From Atractiella rhizophila (taxonomy: Eukaryota), in assembly GCA_021432655.1 (NCBI GenBank), contig MU271330.1:68955-90743 (forward strand): a stretch of 21,789 bases of DNA, written 5' to 3'. This document shows positions 4,372 to 21,292 of this stretch, one piece after another. The position numbers were made by a program, and so were the translations under genes. The notes under the pieces are model-generated. The model was not told the DNA's origin. It was given only the letters and a program-made list of their open reading frames with translations, and did no database searches. Positions within the stretch are counted from its first letter, which is position 1; every line of letters begins with the position of its first letter.

Positions 4372-7142
4372 TCACCATTGCAGCTCGTCAAGCCTCCCTA
4401 CTGTCTCGGCGCTCTTCAATGTCGTCTCAGCTGCTTTCATTCCCACCTTCACCCATTCCCTCAGCGCGGCTCCATTCCCCCCTCTTCTCCCTTCAAGGTA
4501 AGCAGCTAGCAGACCAGCAAGCATCGAGTCTCCTGCTCCTACTACTGTTCCTAGTTCGGATGCATTGAGCTCTCGCTCAGGCGGGAAATAGCAAGCAACA
4601 ACAGCATGTCCGGTCCTTGCATCAACATGATACAGGAGTTCGTCCCCTGATGGGGGGAGTCGGTCATCTAAGGGAAGTCTTTGGGTGACGAGAACTCCTT
4701 TCGGTCCGAGTTTCGTAAAGACATTTCTGGAGATGGTAGTCATTTGGAGAGCCAATGGTACGATCGGTAATAGGAAATTCGGAAGGCGGAGCGAGGACAA
4801 TTCGTGCAGAAGCCCAGAGGGAGAAGGGGGGATCGCGTTGAATAGAGTGTGTACATTCATGCGCACAATTTCGTGTTCGTTCGGAGTGATGATCTCCAGA
4901 GGGGTGATGAAGGGTTCGCTGTGAGAGTTGAAGGGAAGAAGCGCATCCAAGATTTTGAGGGATTTCTGATCACTTGTCGGTTCAAACACAACTGAGGGTC
5001 CCTTAGCCTCAACTGGCGAGCTTGATGGGTGGCGTACCTTTCACGTTGTGTTTGCGGCACCAAGAAACCACTTCTGAAAGTGCTTTAACACTGAGATTCC
5101 CGTCTAAACAAACAATTTGCAGCCCTCCTAGTCGTTCCAAAAACGCAATAATATCGCGTTCATCCCAGTTTTCAACAAGGTTCATATCCGCCATTCCAGT
5201 CATCAATCCTCCCTCCTGATCAAGCACAAGCGTGCATGTCGGTGTCCTTTCCCCGTGTACCGTGACCAATCCGTCCGTTCGCATGCCATACAACCTCATC
5301 CTGTCTTTCACTATCTGGCTCCACTCATCTGTGGCAACAGGGGCGATGAGGGTTGGTGGGGTGACGCCAGAACGGCGCAAAAGTAGAGTAGCTGCGTGAG
5401 CAATGTTGCGTGCGACTCCTCCCATCTGCAATGACAGACGGCCGGGAACAAAACTGAGATTCCCGTCTAAACAAACAATTTGCAGCCCTCCTAGTCGTTC
5501 CAAAGAAGCAATGATATCGCATTCATCCCAGTTTTCAACAAGGTTCATATCCGCCATTCCAGTCATCAATCCTCCCTCCTGATCAAGCACAAGTGTGCAT
5601 GTCGGTGTCCTTCCCCCGTGTACTGTGACCAATCCGTCCGTTCGCATGTCATACAACTTCATCCTGTCTTTCACTATCTGACTCCACTCATCCGTGGCAA
5701 CAGGGGCGATGAGCGTTGGTGGGGTGACGCCAGAACGGCGCAAAAGTAGAGTAGCAGCGTGAGCAATGTTGCGTGCGACTCCTCCCATCTGCAATGACAG
5801 ACGGCCGGGAACTGTAGTGTGAAGACGTGCAGGATGAGATTGCTGTGCTGTGATGTCAACTGCTGCACACCCGACGACAGCGAGAGGTGACTGTTCTGAG
5901 GATGTGTTCAAGCTGATTCCTTTGTGAGATCGTCCATGTTTTGCATCTACCTACGAGTCAATTCATTCCTTTATCTCTGCAGCGGAAGGAGGTACATCTT
6001 CACTCTGTTGCAATTTAGAGTATTCAACAGCGATCTGAGCTCCCACCCTTGCGTTATTCTCGATGAGAGCGATGTCTTCGCACTGGCATAAGAAAACCTT
6101 GAAGGCACATCAACAGAGGACCTACTATTTTCGATACTTTCACCCTTTGTCTCTCTTGCTACGCGCTCAAGGATCCACGGTGTAACCGCTTTGCCTAATT
6201 TATGAATCCCCTCTTCCTCCGCCTTTTTCACAGTCTCCTCGACGATCTTCTGGATTCTTAATCCTCGGTCTTCAAATTTCTGAGGAATTGGATTAGCAAG
6301 AAGCATTCCAGAACCCCTGTCCGTCGAGTTAAGAATCCATAATGCTCTCGCTGCCTCTTGAAAGCTCTCAAATGAGAGTGGAGACTTGCAACCTGAATCA
6401 GAAGTGTAGAAAGCGGGGAACTTCGTGCTTCGATAAGTTGAAACTAGCACTCCAAGTGTCTCCTATTGCCGTAGGAGTTAGGACACGGTGCGGTAAACGT
6501 GAGGAATACGAACAAGGTACTCCAGCGTGAGTGGGATATCAAGGATAGACTTTGGACCTGAACAGACAACCATTCCTGGGATCCGAGCTAGAGTAGGCAG
6601 ATCTGAAGAGATGTCAAAAGCTAAATCTTCACGTCAACATATTGAAATGAGGGTAGAGAGAGGATGCACTAGACGAAGCTCCACGGTGGACCCCTCCAAT
6701 GCCGCCAGTCACAAATACACCTTGATGACCAGCAAGCCGCATAACTTCCATCGTTCCAGACACCGTCAGGCCCGCAGTTTTCCTCTATAATTCGGAAGGA
6801 ATTTAACCTCGTCCGACCCCCATACAGACCTTTGAGCAGAAAGCTCACCTGAGCAACAAAAGCTGGAATCTCTCTCACACCAGCTTTCTCCCTCCCTTCT
6901 TCATTTGCCAATCTCTCAATTTCTTGAGGGCTTAAACCGACCCTTATGACGCCATCCAAGATACCAACAGTGCTTGGAACCGCTCCATGGCCTTCAACGA
7001 TTCTTTCCAAGGAGAGAGGGACGGAAGAGTGTGAAGACGGTAGACCGTGCGTTATAATGGCTGATTCAAGAAATACTAGTGGTTGCTGGTGAACTAGCGC
7101 ATGTTTGACTCGTGGAGAGATCGAAAGGAAACGTCCTGCCAT
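4372..7142 (-). CDS. Bifunctional pseudouridine-5'-phosphate glycosidase (IndA/PsuG family) fused to PfkB-family pseudouridine kinase-like domain, about 7 exons
   Basis: Glycosidase motifs [69 protein letters not shown]. An intron ending at 5951 links in frame to PfkB motifs [47 protein letters not shown]. This fusion is an established architecture in fungi and other eukaryotes. Confidence 0.93.
5087..5812. repeat. Direct tandem duplication, 2 x 363 bp (5087-5449 and 5450-5812), in frame within the kinase domain
   Basis: Hand alignment: 14 mismatches in 363 bp (about 96% identity), no indels, about 8 synonymous and 6 non-synonymous. The 121-aa unit [11 protein letters not shown]...LDGNLS appears twice in ORF 5009-5911. 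Confidence 0.97.
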
Positions 7143-7322: not shown

Positions 7323-8310
7323 ATGCCTGTTAGCTCACCTTCACTGTTCACCAGCGAAGAGCTCGCAATATCAGCAGCTTCAGCTGCTCGACAGATCTCC
7401 TCTTCTTCTGGAGAAGTGTCGGATACCAAAGCGCTCTTAGCAACGACTTCGTCCACATCGTTTCTCGTCACATTCAGTAGCGGCGACCGTGCCTTCGTCC
7501 AATTCAGGAGAAGCGAGATCTCACTCGACGAAAACGCGTTCGCTAACTCTGTTCTTGGGGAAGAAATTGTGCCTAAGGTCTCACGGGTTCACCTTGACGG
7601 CGCCCCCGTAGCATTTGTTTCTCGATTCGTTGATGGAAGGTCTTGGGAGGACTGTGAGAAAGAGATGAATGATGAGCAACATCTCGCCGTCGCTTTTGAA
7701 TTGGGCAAGTTGATTGCCAAGTGCCGAAGGACGGAGTCATCAGAGAAGGTGCTGGATGATGTTGTTGCTCCGAAGCTGGATAGGATCCTGAAGACCGTCA
7801 TGGAGCCAAAAGCTAAAGCTGCCATTCAACATGTCCGAAATAATCTTTACTCTTTGAAGGAATTTCCCCTCGCAAGCTGTCACATGGATCTTCGAGCCAG
7901 TAATGCAAGCTACCACTCTCTCACACTCTTCTTGGCGTCCAAAATGACTGAACTCTGTGTAGATTTTTCTGGACTCAAAATACAAGCTTGTCTCTGTCGT
8001 TTCCTGGCATCACGCCGTCTCTCTTCCCATCGCCTCCAATCTCGGAGTCATTCGCTCGCTGGCCACAATGAATGACGAGATCCTTAATCGGACGTTTGAG
8101 CAGACGGTTCGCTTTGTAGACGGATTTATGGATGGTTTGGGCGATCTCTTCTCAAAGGTATTCACGAATGGGAATAACGAACGAGTTGTGGTTGCTGCCA
8201 AAGCCGGGAAGATATTGTGGCTTTGGAAAGATGAAAACGCAGAGCCACCAGAAGATGCAGTTTCGAGACTTCCCAGACTTTTCGGTTGGTATTTAAGGAT
8301 GTTGAGGTAG
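7323..8310 (+). CDS. Aminoglycoside phosphotransferase (APH)/choline kinase-like fold protein, 2 exons
   Basis: ATG 7323; VQFR...LG..VP N-lobe pattern and HMDLRASN catalytic-loop motif (HxDxxxxN). A 58-nt GC-AG intron (7905-7962) joins it in frame to IFLDSKYKLVSVVSWHHA and on into ORF 8068-8310. Confidence 0.75.
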
Positions 8311-8439
8311 GAAATTATATCCTTAATACATTACATGTGATAAGGGCATCTCTCTTGTCATTCTGAGTTAAATACAGTCTCCAGGAGTAAGAGGCATCCA
8401 TATGTTTAATCGGTCTAATACGAAAGGCAAAAGTTAAGG

Positions 8440-8443
8440 AAAA
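8440..8443 (-). terminator. Putative Pol III terminator (TTTT) immediately 3' of the tRNA-like gene
   Basis: Minus strand reads CGACTTC C C TTTT CCTTAAC TTTT; the T4 runs are short, so this is tentative. Confidence 0.5.
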
Positions 8444-8444
8444 G

Positions 8445-8538
8445 GGAAGTCGCTCAGATTCGAACTGAGATTAGGCAGCAGTTCGACAAGGTCGAGCTAT
8501 AAGCTCAAGTGCCCGGATTACCATTCTCCCACAACTTC
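8445..8538 (-). tRNA. Atypical intron-containing tRNA or tRNA-like gene; nominal anticodon GAG, isotype undetermined
   Basis: Minus strand: GAAGTTG TG GGAG AATGGTA ATCC G GGCAC TT GAG C [TTATAGCTCGACCTTGTCGAAC] T GCTGCC TAAT CTCAG TTCGAAT CTGAG CGACTTC C. It has a 7-bp acceptor stem, 3-bp D stem with GG in the loop, perfect 5-bp T stem with TTCGAAT loop, A- and B-box-like sequences and a downstream T run. Confidence 0.85.
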
Positions 8539-8919
8539 TCTAAAGTATACTAAGTTTAAACTGCAAAATATCAACCTTGAGAGTATAAGGAGCTTTTGGA
8601 AGTCAAGTTGCAATGCACACTTGTTTCTGTTTCCATAACGATCACAAACCCACAGTCCTAAACATGTTGCGTTCGTTGTTGCCGTTGTGGATAGGCAACC
8701 AGCAGGGTTCACGTGGACCGGAAGAGCGGTTGCGCATTATTGCGGCCTAAACCCGCCGTTCCCGCCGAATGTCGGAATCGGAACAGTTCATAAAATTTTT
8801 GAAGAGCTCGCAACACGCCAAGCGAGGAAGAAAAGTTATCAAGAAGTGCAGTACCGTGAGTAATTCGCCTTATTGCACGAGCAGTGCTTACTTTGGACTT
8901 TGGAAGCAGTTAAAACAAA

Positions 8920-11900
8920 ATGGCTAATGCTAATGCCCAAGTTGTGGAACTCGTCAATGAAAATGGAGGCGTAGAGGAGCTCGAAAACCAAGGAAAGGAG
9001 AGCTTGTTAGCGCAAGGTATGCCTTCTTATAACTAAGTGATAATGGGAAATTGAGTGTAGCGCCGGGTTAGAAACTTTTGACCTTACACTGTTGCTACCT
9101 GCACCGTCATATATACCGCCTAGTTTGCTCCACCCCACAACTTTCTCTACATTTCTGCCATCCCCCACTGAACCTCAAGAGCGAGTAACGATTGTTGAGC
9201 TCGATGGAAAATCCTACATGTCTTTGCACCTCGCCATTTCGCCTCTGGAAACAGTTCGAGAGTTGCGACAGTCATTGCTCGAATCCGATGAGGGGAGGTG
9301 GTTACCTGCTAGTTGTGGATTAGCGAAGGTTGGAAGTGAAAAGGAAGAATATGTTGGAGAATGGAGCGAGATTGGAAAAGTTTGGGAAGATGCTATGCCT
9401 GCGGAGGGAGAGAAGAGGATATTAAAAGTGGTCGACAGTCTGTGTCTGTTCACTTTTGCTGTTCTTGACCTAAAAGACGTGTAACAGGACCTCTTACTGA
9501 ACCAACAAGCCGAGTGCATATCCAAAAGTTCAGGGACTTCATCACTTCGACCCCGTCTAATCCTGGAGCTACAGCAAGTGGCACGGACTATGGGTTTGTT
9601 TACGACCCGAATGCCATGGCGATTGGAGAAGGCATTTCAGTGTTCCCTGGAGTTCGCGCACAAGCTCTTCCCAGGCCAGCCCCTTCTGAAGTAGAGGAGA
9701 AGCCTGAAACGAATGCTTCAGGAAAGAAGAACAACAAGGGGAAATCTAAGTCGAAACCCACAGAGTCCGGGGGTGAAGACACGTCAGCTGCCGACGCGCT
9801 CACACAGACGATGGAGAGGGTCAAGTCTTTCTGCTCCTCTGCTTCGAATATTGCCCAATCTCCTTTCGAGGTGTACACGTCAACCTTCCCTTCACCGCCT
9901 CAAGTTTCCTCACTCCCTCCTTACTTACGCTCCTTCTCCCTCTCTCAATGGAATCCCCCACCACATCCCCTTCGTCTGAGGAAGGGCCATCACTTTTACC
10001 TCCACGCTCAAATAGTCGAAGGCGACAATCTTCATATTACCAGTCACGCCGGAGGGTATACGATCAACCGCTCCGACAACCACCATTTCGATCCATCTCC
10101 TCGGGCTGGCCAGAGGTCGTACCCCACCCTTTGGGAACTTTTCTGTTCCATTTCTCCCGCCTTTAAAAGTCGACTGAACAAGACGCTTCAAATTCTTAGC
10201 GACGAAAACATTTGGCTCCTCACCGGCGGTGGAGGAGTTATTCCGGATGACCCGCCTCTTTCTTTCTTTTCCAAAGTTCAAATCCCAACTTACCCTCCCG
10301 CACACCCCTTCCTCGTCCCTCAGCCTTCCAACGTACAACCAGATGGAACTCGAATGCAGCTCCCTTTCCTCCAAGGATTCAAAGATCCCGCTGTCCGGGA
10401 CTGGAACGAAGAACTCGTCTCTTGTAGGGAAATGCCGCGGGCCAAACCTGCAGAGAGGCTGTTGCGCGAAAGGATGAAGGCGAGGGTGATGTGGGAATTG
10501 AGGGAAGAAATCGTCCGCGGTGTCGAGCGGATAGGTCGCGGTGAGATGGAGAGTTTAGTTCCATTCAGCGATCTGGACAGCGGAGAGAAGGAGAACTCAA
10601 CAGAGGAATCGAAGGAGACGCAGAAACCGGACGAACATACTTACGTTTGGAACGGCGTTCTCTACGTTAAGGCTGGAGGGGATGGCGCTCAGTTCAAAGG
10701 CTTCTTGGGAGGAGATGATGCTGCAAGGGTTGCTGCTGGTAAAGATGTACGAGGTGCAGAGACCTGCGAAGAGCTCGATATCGGTGCCGTTGGTGTTGGA
10801 GAAGGAGGAGAAACTGGGCTTGGATTACAGACTTTGGGCACTGCCGTCGTGGATTTCATGGGTGAACGTTGGGTTGGACAGTCCCTTTTGCCTGGGATAT
10901 TATGGCGAGCAAAGGAGGACGAGGAAAAGGCAAAGGATCCAGAGCGCGGCTTTTTGAGCGACGCGGACGTCCTCGAAGGGAACAAGGAACCCCCTCAAAC
11001 CAACTTCCGCATCGTCTACGGCCTTGCCGACCCCGATGATGTCGATAGCACAAAGGTCAACGCAGCGCCTTGGTTTGAGGAGAAGGCGAGGAAGGTTGGA
11101 GATCTGTTCAGAGTCGACAGGCACAACGTTGAACAGCCAGATGGTACCTCGAAGGAACTCGCTTTGAGTCGGGAGGTACATGGCTTGCTTGGAACGGATG
11201 GACGTGCATACCTCATTGACCTATGTTCGTATCCTATCCCTTTATGAACCTCTCTCATCAACTGAATAGACCGATTGTACCCGATGGATCTCGAGTTTCT
11301 TGAAAACGACCTCGAATCTGCCCCTTTCTCAGAGGTTTCGGCGGAATCGACCGCTGGTCCTTATCCTCACCGGTTAACACTTCTTCGACCAGAACTTCTT
11401 GATCGATACGTCCTACGACAGATTAGCAAGCACAGGATCGCAGAAGCGTCGTCCAAGTTGAAGGAGGGCAAAGCGACAGAAGAGAAGACGGAGGAGAAGG
11501 AAATCGACCTTGAGAACTCCATTTCGGAAGCCATGGACGCTCCAATTTCTCCTTCAGCGTCAGAGAAGGAGAAGAAGCTCGAGCCCACAGAACAGAAAGA
11601 ACCTGCTGAAGAGCAAGAGTTGCTTCCCAGGTTTAACACTGACGCTTACCTTGACCGTATATCGAAGGAGGAACACTTGAAGCCACTCACTGAAGATGAA
11701 TTGTCGAAGGAGCCTAAAGGCGTCAAAAATGTCCGCGAAGCTGCCAAATTCCTGAGAAATGAATTGCTTCGAGAATTTGTTCTGGAGACGGGATTGGCGC
11801 AGGGTCATGCTGTTCACATCGATTACGATGGGTTGGGCCTGACTCAACGGTTGCACGCCAAAGGTATTAACATGCGCTACTTAGGCAAGTTGGTTGCTGT

Positions 11901-17560: not shown

Positions 17561-20500
17561 TTATGGGAGAATCACGGCTGTGCAGTCTCTCTCCTCCGGT
17601 CCCTGTCGTTTTTGCTTTAATTTTCGAATGTTCCTAATGAAATCAAGGTGCTCCTGAAACTCATCAAGACGAGACCTGGCAAGTCTCTCTTGATTTGAGA
17701 GTCGTTCAAGATTCCTCATCTACCGTTTCCGTTTCTAGTTCAGTACCTCTGGCCAAATGAAGTAGGAAAAGACAGTACCAGTATGCTCCTCTCAACTTCA
17801 AAGTCCGCCTCCCGAATCTCTTTCCATCCATCATGCCTCGTGCACTTCTTCTTTGGCAGCAGGCAGGTATAACCTTCGCCTCCCTCCCTCCCTTCCTCTG
17901 TAATTCCCTCCCTCCAAGCTAGAGCCTGCTTGCCTTCCTCACTCTCAATCCAAGCCTCGAACTCCTTGTCGCTCCACACTAGCCTGACATCGAATCCGCA
18001 AGGGGCCTCATCTTTTGCGTGCCCCTGAGCCTTCTTCGTCTTTCCCGATTTCTTACTCTTCTTACCCTTCTTCCCAACTAGCTCTACTTCTTCTTCGATG
18101 TCGGGTAACACTCCCCCAGCAGCCTTGATAGCCGCCAACGTCGTGCGCAAGAGCGAATCCCATCGTTTGATAGCAACCTGGAGAAACTGAAGGCGGGCAT
18201 TCACGAGCTCGACGTGCTTTTGAATACCACTTCGCTTTGCTTGCAACTCCGTCATCCGTCCTCTAAGAGCAACAAGGCGTTGAACATCCGCCTCTTCCTC
18301 CGTCTCCTCTTGTCGCTCCCTCGAAGCTTCGTTCCCCATCTCCTTCATCACCAGATCTTCTCTCTTCACACTTGAATTTGTACCCCGCGCTCCTTTTACA
18401 ACTTCCCACAGTCGCATTGGCTCAATACCGCTCTCGAGTAAACGCAGCGCTGCTACTTCTGTACCGCAATAATCGGAACAATATTTCGAGAGATGCTCTC
18501 GTGGTTTTGGGCAGCCGTTTCGAAGGCATTTCTGTCGGAACGTGGTGTGGAACTCCTCTACTCCCTTCCATCATTCCAATGAGATTAAGCAAAACGCAAA
18601 AACAAACAATCCAACAATCCCGACAAAAAAAAAAGGCAAACAACCCAAACCGAGCCTCCGCCAAAATGCAAAAAGCAAAGGGGAAACAACCCGCCCAACC
18701 AAGAAGCCAGTAAAAAGGCAAACCAAGAAGCATCATGATAACAAACACCGACCTATCACATTGGATCATCGAACGCGTCTCATCGTACTTGTCATGGCAA
18801 GCGAGAGAACAGCACGAGGCAGGATGTGTGAACAGCAGAACCATGGCGATTGTTCGATTAAACGGGCGAACGGTGAAATGTCAATAAGCGCAATTGATTG
18901 GACAAAGAGGAAAGCATAACGACAAACACATAAGTCAGATGCAGCATTGTTTGAAAAGGTGGAAAGCGAGCGTACCATCTCTCTACAAACGCAGTAGACC
19001 CTCCAATCCTCCTCCTTCGCATTCTCTTTCTCCTCCGGATCCATGCTCCGCATAAACTCCTCCTCTGCCTCTCTTCGCAAACGCTTTACACGCTCGCTTT
19101 CTGTCTCCCCTAGCGGTGCCGGGGTTTCGGACGGTTTGTTCGTCGCATTGGCAGTTTTTGAACGTGTTTGGCGCCGTGACTTTCCTTCCTGTATAATTTG
19201 TGAGCGACACAGCTGATGAAGAACAAAGCAACACGACCTTTGCACTTCTTGGCGTAGTAGAATCAGCGGTGGGTTTTGGCGCTGCTTTTTTCACCTGTCA
19301 GTGTGTATCAGTATTTGACTCGTGTAATGAACATGAAGGGGCATGACAACGTTGGAACTACTCGACCACAAGCACTTTGGAGCAATCATACGTAATTCGG
19401 ATCGTTGGCATCTTCCAGTCCAACCCAGATGAACAAGTTGAAGCAAATTAGCGTACCTTCGGCTTCTCCTCTTCCTTAGCCTTCCCCTTCCCTTTCCGGT
19501 CCTTCTTCTCCTTCTCCTTCTTACTCTCCTTCTCCATCTCTAACGGTGATGGCATCGACTCTTCCCGCTCCGGTGGCACATTCACCTCTACCTCCATCTT
19601 TACAATTGGTTCTTCCTCTCCATTCCCAGACTCAAGCATCAAGCGGATCATCTCCTCGTGCTCTTCATCATGCTGGACTCGCAGGAGCTTAGGTGGAACG
19701 GGAGAGATGATATCGATGTATATGGCTGGATTGGTGTATTCTTGGGTGAGCGTTATGGGTTGATCTGTGCCGCAATAATCGGAGCAATATTTCGAAAGGT
19801 GCTCTCGTGGTTTTGGGCAGCCGTTTCGAAGGCATTTCTGTCGGAACGTGGTGTGGAACTCCTCTATTCCCTTTCATCATTCCAATGAGATTACTGCAGG
19901 CTGCAGAACGAACCATTCGAGCATTCCGGGCAAACGAAAAGGTCAATCAGCTCAACCGTGTCTTCGTCCACATTGCAACAGTCAAGGTGGAACCATCCGT
20001 CGCACCTATGAGTCAGTTAGAACGTCGAGCAGGAAGGATCTTGATGCCGAATGCCAACCTATCACATTGGATCATCAAACGCGTTTCATCGTACTTGTCA
20101 TTGCAAGCGAGAGAACAGCACGAGGCAGGATGTGTGAACAGCAGAACCATGGCGATTATTCAATTAAACGGGCGAACGGTGAAATGTTAATAAGCGTAAT
20201 TGGTTGGACAAAGAGGAAAGCATAACAACAAACACAGAAGTCAGATGCGGCATTGTTTGAAAAGGTGGAAAGCGAGCGTACCATCTCTCTACAAACACAG
20301 TAGACCCTCCAATCTTCCTCCTTCGCATTCTCTTTCTCCTCCGGATCCATGCTCCGCATAAACTCCTCCTCTGCCTCTCTTCGCAAACGCTTTACACGCT
20401 CGCTTTCAGTCTCCCCTAGCGGTGCTGGGGTTTCGGACGGTTTGTTCGTCGCATTGGCCGTTTTCGAACGTGTTTGGCGCCGTGATTTTCCTTCCTGTAT

Positions 20501-21292
20501 AATTGGTGAGCGGCATAGCTGATGAGGAACAAAGCAACACGACCTTTGCACTTCTTGGCGTAATAGAATCAGCGGTGGGTTTTGATGCTGCTTTTTTCAC
20601 CTGTCAGCATGTATCAGTATTCGACTCGTGTAATGAACATGAAGGGCATGACAACGTTGGAACTACTCGAGCAGAAGCACTTTCGAGCAGTCATACGTAA
20701 TTATGATCGTAGCTCCTTCCAGCCCGACCCAAATACATAAGTTGAAGCCAATCAGCGTACCTTCGGCTTCTCCTCTTCCTTAGCCTTCCCCTTCCCTTTC
20801 CGGTCCTTCTTCTCCTTCTCCTTCTTACTCTCCTTCTCCATCTCTAACGGTGATGGCATCGACTCTTCCCGCTCCGGGGGCACATTCACCTCTACCTCCA
20901 TCTTTACAATTGGTTCTTCCTCTCCATTCCCAGACTCAAGCATCAAGCGGATCATCTCCTCGTGCTCTTCATCACGCTGGACTCGCAGGAGCTTAGGTGG
21001 AACGGGAGAGATGATATCGATGTATATGGCTGGATTGGTGTATTCTTGGGTGAGCGTTATGGGTTGAGAGGCTGAAGGAGAAGAGGCTGGAGGGGAAGGG
21101 TGGCGCATTATGTTGAAGGAGGTGCTCGGTTCTAAGGCGACAGCTGACGCTGAAGAGGACGCCAATGGTTGATTTGGTTCTACGTGCCTGCATCAGGTCA
21201 TTGAACATATCACATTCCCAAATCTCACTCAGACAATGAAAAACGCACATTGGTATACTCAAAGGTTCCTCCTCCATATTTGTGGGCTCCAT
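17561..21292 (-). CDS. SPP1: Spp1/CFP1-like COMPASS PHD-finger protein; internal region present twice in this sequence
   Basis: The upstream copy splices to VYCVCREM|YDETRLMIQCDR|CDGWFHLDCCNVDEDTVELIDLFVCPECSN|EEFHTTFRQKCLRNGCPKPREHLSKYCSDYCG (C4HC3 PHD plus SKYCS motif). The C-terminus has a coiled coil, CGFDVRL, CLLPKKKCTRHDGW and a final exon MRNLERLSNQER...LP* (17561-17719). ATG at 21292 or the next Met is inferred. Confidence 0.88.
18458..21067. repeat. Direct tandem duplication: copy A 18458-19763 (1306 bp), copy B 19764-21067 (1304 bp)
   Basis: Constant offset of 1306 up to about 19340, then two 1-nt intronic indels. Exons are nearly identical and introns more diverged. Junction ...GGGTTGA|TCTGTGCC... 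has no spacer. Confidence 0.97.
18588..18747. other. Probable consensus artefact: overlay of two sequences offset by 1 nt, resolved to the alphabetically first base
   Basis: For 18601-18700, taking the lower (A<C<G<T) of copy-B bases i+1306 and i+1307 reproduces 97 of 100 bases by hand comparison. Confidence 0.92.

Follow-up and report, generated by a model that had tools for sequence, protein, structure and literature searches.

The minus strand of the window, which is the whole stretch of 21,789 nucleotides of Atractiella rhizophila DNA that was analysed (contig MU271330.1 of assembly GCA_021432655.1), carries at positions 8445..8538 a real member of the tRNA family, beyond chance, whose anticodon does not fit its body. 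A GAG anticodon sits on a “class I” body with a short variable loop, together with C37, C73 and an imperfect anticodon stem, and this combination, which had been noticed in a sequence-only reading of the DNA, was confirmed both in the letters and in the Rfam alignment; the interpretation offered there is supported in part. We give about an even chance to the reading that the gene is an isotype-discordant, decoding-dead relic of a class-I, intron-bearing tRNA gene, present at a single locus and perhaps still transcribed. The established components of this reading are the anatomy of the gene, its membership of the tRNA family, the failure of every intron placement to rescue it and the standard reading of CUY codons in the host. 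The significance of the locus is chiefly one of annotation: gene finders would name it Leu, Ala or Thr according to their settings, and none of these names is trustworthy.

Detection and anatomy of the gene

The Rfam model RF00005 covers 8445-8538(-) over model positions 1-71 and scores 38.0 bits where the gathering score is 29 (E 3.2e-07), in an alignment which skips 32 nucleotides at the anticodon loop where the model has 9. Wider scans with the same model, of the whole window at the gathering threshold and of 301 nt at E up to 10, did not report it at the gene, because the search filters evidently discard the gene owing to its insert. ARAGORN finds one gene in the whole window, with a score of 100.3 when introns are disallowed and 109.2 when they are allowed. 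In 100 dinucleotide-preserving shuffles of the window (2,178,900 nt in total) the same program produced no hit without introns and one with introns, and this sole spurious call required a 2106-nt intron (score 101.2). The claim that the locus is a tRNA-like gene is supported by the Rfam and ARAGORN scores and by the shuffle controls. ARAGORN, which had been proposed as a check, detects the gene but calls its isotype as Ala or Thr and not from GAG.

The structural elements listed in the sequence-only reading, namely the acceptor, D and T arms, the TAAT variable loop, the C discriminator and the insert of 22-23 nt, were each found in the sequence on the minus strand (Table 1). In the gene numbering used here index 1 is window position 8538, and the indices follow the minus strand down to 8445. 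The acceptor stem forms seven of its seven pairs, one of which is a U6.G67 wobble. The D stem has three pairs, between GGA (indices 10-12) and TCC (22-24), with G13 opposite A22 and the loop AATGGTA, and the T stem has five of five, between CTCAG (indices 70-74) and CTGAG (82-86), around TTCGAAT. The discriminator is the C at 8445 (index 94). The four stems of a cloverleaf are present, and the conserved loop nucleotides are there as GG (D loop) and TTCGA (T loop). The anticodon stem forms four of its five pairs, or five if a bulge is allowed. The positions that make tertiary pairs are coherent when inspected by eye (U8, A14, A15 with U48, G18 and G19, and T54, T55 and C56 with A58).

Table 1. 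Positions of the gene, its parts and its flanking signals in the window, listed from 5' to 3' along the minus strand after the whole gene.
Feature	Positions	Strand	Basis and remarks
Whole tRNA-like gene, 94 nt	8445..8538	(-)	G1 at 8538 to discriminator C at 8445; RF00005 38.0 bits, ARAGORN 109.2
TATTTT, TATA-like upstream element	8565..8570 (-32 to -27 from G1)	(-)	Putative; weak
Acceptor stem, 5' strand, GAAGTTG	8532..8538	(-)	Indices 1-7; partner 8446-8452
U8, G9 and D arm GGAG-AATGGTA-ATCC, overlapping A-box-like TGGGAGAATGG	8515..8531	(-)	Letters read
G26	8514	(-)	Rfam alignment
Anticodon stem, 5' strand, GGCAC, positions 27-31	8509..8513	(-)	Rfam alignment places GGCA here
Anticodon loop, positions 32-37, TTGAGC	8503..8508 (GAG 8504-8506, C37 8503)	(-)	Rfam alignment and excision enumeration
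Putative intron, 22-23 nt, at 37/38	8480..8502	(-)	ARAGORN, enumeration, letters
Anticodon stem, 3' strand, CTGCC (C31.C39 mismatch) or G+C+TGCC (bulged C)	8474..8479	(-)	Enumeration and folds
Variable loop TAAT, 4 nt, without long arm	8470..8473	(-)	Rfam alignment
T arm CTCAG-TTCGAAT-CTGAG, overlapping B-box-like AGTTCGAATCT	8453..8469	(-)	Letters, ARAGORN, Rfam
Acceptor stem, 3' strand, CGACTTC	8446..8452	(-)	Indices 87-93
Two runs of four T, possible Pol III terminator	8429..8443 (8440-8443 and 8429-8432)	(-)	Directly after the gene; putative function

The internal promoter regions were compared by eye with the A-box and B-box consensus sequences. The A-box-like element at indices 8-18 agrees with TRGCNNAGTGG at 9 of 11 positions, and the B-box-like element at indices 73-83 agrees with GGTTCGANNCC at 9 of 11 positions. 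The TATA-like element upstream is weak as a signal because the region is AT-rich. Taken together, the box-like regions, the T runs and TATTTT would suit transcription by Pol III without proving it.

The 15-nt D arm occurs in exactly the same form in a bacterial-type tRNA-Cys(GCA) (L001 288-360) and a bacterial-type tRNA-Ser(GCU) (L002 286-371) on metagenome contigs, and it is therefore not isotype-specific. These lie in the only two loci returned when metagenomes were scanned with the D arm and T loop of the gene; both loci are tRNA clusters of bacterial type, one with Cys GCA and the other with Ser GCU, and have nothing but the D arm in common with the gene. A literature search returned no paper that joins Atractiella rhizophila with tRNA and none that contains the D-arm or 3'-end strings of the gene.

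Anticodon frame, intron and identity elements

The identity of the gene depends on where its insert is placed. The Rfam frame has one nucleotide at position 26, a GGCA/UGCC anticodon stem and a UAAU variable loop, and it yields the loop TTGAGC, the anticodon GAG, C37 and an insert that starts exactly at 37/38, so that the insert lies directly 3' of position 37, as the intron of an intron-bearing pre-tRNA does. In an enumeration, every single excision between the D and T arms was generated, and a product was kept if its loop had 7 nt and its stem, drawn unbulged, made four or more of the five pairs. Thirty-four products were retained, and not one of the 34 is fully canonical in the sense of having one nucleotide at position 26, a variable loop of 4-5 nt, U33 and a purine at 37. 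Eleven are in the canonical frame (one nucleotide at 26, TAAT) and carry the anticodons GAG, GAC or AAC, none of them with a purine at 37, while the nine that combine U33 with a purine at 37 (UGA, UGU, UCU, ACU and CGA) all lack nucleotide 26 and have a variable loop of 3 or 6 nt. The suggestion that another intron placement might give a normal isotype consequently fails.

The anticodon stem had been described as carrying either a C31.C39 mismatch or a bulged C, depending on the 3' splice point, and both forms were found. The bulged form was drawn by hand: C31 is set against the G that precedes CTGCC and one C is bulged, which gives a 5-bp stem and the loop TTGAGCT, still with GAG and C37. The minimum-energy structure of both canonical splicing products is a cloverleaf (-19.0 and -19.1 kcal/mol).

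The two names given by ARAGORN were tried and rejected. The Ala(AGC) model, obtained without introns, takes the insert as a long variable arm, places G at position 33 and has only three of five anticodon-stem pairs; the gene also has no G3.U70, which belongs to tRNA-Ala identity, position 3-70 being A-T. The Thr(TGT) model, obtained with introns, requires a 25-nt intron at 35/36, dispenses with nucleotide 26 and leaves only 3 nt for the variable loop.

The insert contains AGCTCGA, which is complementary to the anticodon loop, and a second small hairpin, TCGAC-CTT-GTCGA. The helix between loop positions 32-37 and the intron has 6 pairs counting G.U, a length reached by 1164 of 20000 shuffles of the intron (5.8%), and 4 pairs if only Watson-Crick pairs are counted, a length reached by 4257 of 20000. 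The complementarity pointed out in the sequence-only reading is thus present, but the pairing is not beyond chance, because so many shuffles equal it. The two small hairpins of the insert form automatically, since self-complementary tetramers repeat within it (AGCT twice and TCGA twice). In constrained folds the 3' splice site is single-stranded, and an A 3 nt upstream of it is available to pair with U32. No bulge-helix-bulge could be drawn by hand at the canonical 3' splice site, and the models drawn in the same way for other intron positions, on each of the two small hairpins, all failed to close with an outer helix. Neither a spliced form nor contig joints were found in the contigs of four public runs, two of which cover the gene.

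The intron also has CTTGTCGA (8484-8491, minus strand), which resembles an Asp-type anticodon loop (GTC followed by a purine) and pairs with the TCGAC just upstream. The motif TTGTCG in it, which may be like the loop of yeast tRNA-Asp, was rejected as evidence, because an intron of such a size should contain about one hexamer of the form Y-T-N-N-N-R by chance.

A long variable arm and the discriminator A73 characterise cytosolic tRNA-Leu, and tRNAs with G36 carry a purine at position 37, which in tRNA-Leu is m1G. The gene has a 4-nt TAAT where the “class II” body of a tRNA-Leu has its long variable arm, C at 8445 in place of A73, and C at 8503 in place of a purine at 37. None of the synthetase identity sets considered is satisfied, given C37, C73, the lack of a long arm, the lack of G3.U70 and the imperfect anticodon stem. 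The defects are confined to 17 of about 72 nucleotides, and all stems outside the anticodon arm are perfect. The restriction of the anomalies to the anticodon arm, on which the case for a maintained gene rests in part, is true, and it is the best evidence available against plain decay. One local change affecting the loop and the intron could, however, have given the whole cluster of defects.

Relic, maintained element or mobile copy

The course of events that the relic reading proposes would begin with an ordinary class-I, short-variable-loop, intron-bearing tRNA gene, a descent that we assume. The gene would have retained all that is needed for TFIIIC binding, Pol III transcription, folding and end-processing, while its anticodon arm was altered to give GAG, C37 and a mismatched or bulged stem. 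An RNA of this kind would match the rules of no synthetase and presumably would not be charged, so that it would not decode. The net result would be a tRNA pseudogene or a dead-end anticodon shift, perhaps with a short-lived Pol III transcript. Such a relic would most likely be of a type that has already been catalogued in other genomes.

One candidate for comparison is the S. cerevisiae gene tX(XXX)D, a nuclear tRNA gene of undetermined isotype that is regarded as a pseudogene, and which in its isotype status is like the Atractiella gene. Further parallels are described in the tRNAscan-SE 2.0 paper (PMC8450103), where the anticodon and the best isotype model agree for more than 95% of typical tRNA predictions in the genomes studied, and where the published cases with the signature seen here are read as silenced pseudogenes or repeats, so that the relic reading has precedent. 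One of these cases is a gene with a Leu anticodon and a tRNA-Met origin, which is barely expressed and is read there as a silenced pseudogene or a specially regulated gene (PMC8450103). It shares with the Atractiella gene a class-I body without a long arm, an otherwise good cloverleaf and a single locus. As that source presents it, the tRNA-Met-derived gene has a known parent, one anticodon change, seven differences and a measured low expression, whereas the Atractiella gene has an intron and, in addition, C37, C73 and the stem defect.

The second case concerns another basidiomycete, Serpula lacrymans, in which, according to the same source (PMC8450103), most discordant predictions have UGA on a Thr-type body with a variable loop instead of an arm, and belong to repeats with identical flanks. 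There, as in Atractiella, the anticodon of a long-arm isotype is found on a body with only a variable loop, and the likeness extends to the shifted reading of the Atractiella gene, which also gives UGA, and to the ARAGORN call of Thr. The Serpula repeats are, however, high-copy with identical 50-bp flanks, whereas the window contains the Atractiella gene only once and the one variant copy sits at the same locus. A broader comparison is offered by alloacceptor shifts, of which Rogers and Griffiths-Jones 2014 (PMC3923123) report 30 in eukaryotes, with position 35 affected most often and with no case among the 11 yeasts they studied. These shifts are like the Atractiella gene in joining a body of one identity to the anticodon of another; they are defined by syntenic orthologues, whereas the Atractiella case is known from a single locus. 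By the logic of that work, a class-I parent would most simply be His (GUG) or Phe (GAA). Comparison with yeast tRNA-His, tRNA-Pro and tRNA-Asp sequences singled out none of the three as the parent.

Two public runs carry the same locus, as contigs of uncertain library type. In run X3 a 159-nt contig covers 8399-8557 with one differing letter and no gap; in run X6 a 156-nt contig covers 8394-8531 with three differing letters and no gap, which is 138 nt of gene plus trailer. Both contigs cover the anticodon arm and intron, and neither has a difference listed away from its ends. An assembly error behind the odd letters is therefore unlikely, and the concern that they might be such errors is not borne out, the same letters being present in both contigs. 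The X6 contig departs from the window before 8394, and 9 of its 14 loose letters match the only AGAATGACA of the window, 30 nt further along the flank. Its return to the same flank shows that it is this locus, and no dispersed copy, in a variant genome whose 3' flank differs by an indel of about 29 nt. Also in run X3, a 365-nt contig that covers 8200-8234 and continues leftwards has a word depth of 82.7, compared with 3.2 for the tRNA contig of that run; this high-depth stretch is the end of the upstream plus-strand reading frame, and it may be a repeat or a highly expressed or conserved piece.

Several observations count against a relic. Its defects lie in 17 of about 72 nt, unlike evenly spread decay; its intron is complementary over 6 pairs to the odd loop that is present now, though 5.8% of shuffles reach as much; and the X6 variant, in spite of its flank indel of about 29 nt, has at most 3 differences over the 138 nt of gene plus trailer. 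One alternative, the first option of the sequence-only reading, is that the gene is a maintained, non-decoding tRNA-like element, kept for a Pol III/TFIIIC role (marking a chromatin boundary or regulating locally between two Pol II genes) or as a source of a stable tRNA-like RNA or fragment. The location would be appropriate for this, since the gene stands alone in a spacer of 610 nt between two genes: a plus-strand reading frame ends at about 8310, and the first exon of CLU1 opens with its ATG at 8920, the tRNA gene being transcribed away from CLU1. The latter is the large ORF to the right (Pfam CLU, eIF3_p135, TPR), 99% identical to the annotated Atractiella rhizophila protein, with the next relatives (Rhodotorula, Mixia) at 30-34%. 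The intact A- and B-box-like regions, T runs and non-anticodon stems, the restriction of the anomalies to the anticodon arm, and the nearly unchanged gene and trailer of the X6 variant would all be expected of such an element. A young pseudogene would nevertheless look alike, and the 3' trailer is as conserved in X6 as the gene itself, so that the low divergence may only reflect close strains. We regard a maintained element as unlikely.

A copy of a tRNA-derived mobile element, whether the head of a SINE or a solo LTR from a Helenus-type TRIM, is a decidedly doubtful explanation. Helenus (TRIMp3) LTRs contain tRNA-like stretches that have A and B boxes and disagree in isotype, are abundant in Pucciniales and inflate the counts of discordant tRNAs in rust fungi, as described by Kojima 2024 (PMC10886601). 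Helenus and the Atractiella gene have in common a tRNA-like sequence, A and B boxes, isotype disagreement and an occurrence in Pucciniomycotina, and the Logan contigs that contain the gene are short and end near it. The gene differs from Helenus in that a search for LTR ends, a target duplication or a match to a described family gave nothing for it. The window holds no second copy of the gene and no convincing TG..CA ends with a 5-bp target duplication, the repeats in the flanks being at chance density, and none of four motif strings of the gene occurs in one supplementary file of PMC10886601. Kojima 2024 found no Helenus in Pucciniomycetes outside Pucciniales (PMC10886601). The X6 contig, in rejoining the same flank 30 nt on, also speaks for the same locus and against a mobile copy.

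Reading of CUC and CUU codons

If the gene did decode, its effect would fall on codons that the host uses heavily. In CLU1, 78 of 155 Leu codons are CTC (40) or CTT (38). For a test of their meaning, 1563 of 1566 annotated residues were mapped to window codons and aligned with 59 of the 119 other listed homologues (P0002-P0060), and a column was dropped if it held under 30 residues or agreed at under 70%, which leaves a small sample. The conserved residue is Leu in 10 of 16 columns for CTC and in 12 of 18 for CTT, which is no worse than at the other Leu codons (CTG 5 of 11, CTA 2 of 3, TTG 4 of 15 and TTA 5 of 8), and no sign of recoding was seen at CUC or CUU, since no alternative residue recurs more than twice in the columns of this alignment. 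As far as the codons of this protein can establish it, CUC and CUU are ordinary Leu codons in Atractiella rhizophila, and much used. Since every second Leu codon is CTC or CTT, a GAG tRNA bearing a different amino acid would compete at all of these, and a mis-sense decoder would be costly and is therefore unlikely.

These results bear on the possibility that the gene is a working decoder of unusual identity, the second option of the sequence-only reading. Its RNA would then be spliced, would receive Leu by some uncommon route or else a different amino acid, and would read CUC and CUU. S. cerevisiae has a tRNA-Leu with GAG, and GAG is a legitimate CUY anticodon in some yeasts; both canonical splicing products of the gene fold as cloverleaves. 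A class-I body that reads CUN codons is that of the yeast mitochondrial tRNA-Thr(UAG), which is derived from tRNA-His and has a dedicated synthetase and an enlarged loop. The Atractiella gene is like it in having a class-I body with an anticodon of the CUN box and unlike it in that the yeast tRNA is mitochondrial, with its own synthetase and enlarged loop. Against a working decoder stand the C37, C73, missing long arm, missing G3.U70 and imperfect stem, which leave none of the identity sets considered satisfied, as well as the use of CUY for Leu at half of the CLU1 Leu codons with no recurrent alternative residue, and we consider it very improbable.

The most consequential interpretation would be a spliced, stable, class-I GAG tRNA that either carries some amino acid in place of Leu, with recoding of CUC and CUU at a low level or under certain conditions as the result, or is kept as a conserved non-decoding mimic. 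It would explain why the departures from tRNA rules occur only at decoding and identity positions while folding and the Pol III signals are intact, but we hold it, too, to be very unlikely. An RNA from this locus that was in fact spliced, stable and charged would be an uncommon nuclear example of a class-I tRNA that reads a Leu codon box, and would bear on the way in which codon reassignments start.

That a normal tRNA has been mis-read, through wrong intron placement or assembly error, is scarcely credible and already largely refuted: ARAGORN does name Ala AGC and Thr TGT, but both models are structurally defective, the Rfam alignment supports the canonical frame, no enumerated product is canonical, and the X3 and X6 contigs cover the anticodon arm and intron with the same letters.

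Elsewhere in the window, 5087-5449 and 5450-5812 form a 363-bp tandem duplication (96% identical) in the region of a minus-strand ORF for a PfkB-family carbohydrate kinase, possibly an internal repeat or an assembly duplication. A second tandem arrangement, overlapping minus-strand ORFs without a Pfam match, consists of the 1.3-kb units 18458-19763 and 19764-21067, which lie head to tail and are 91% identical.
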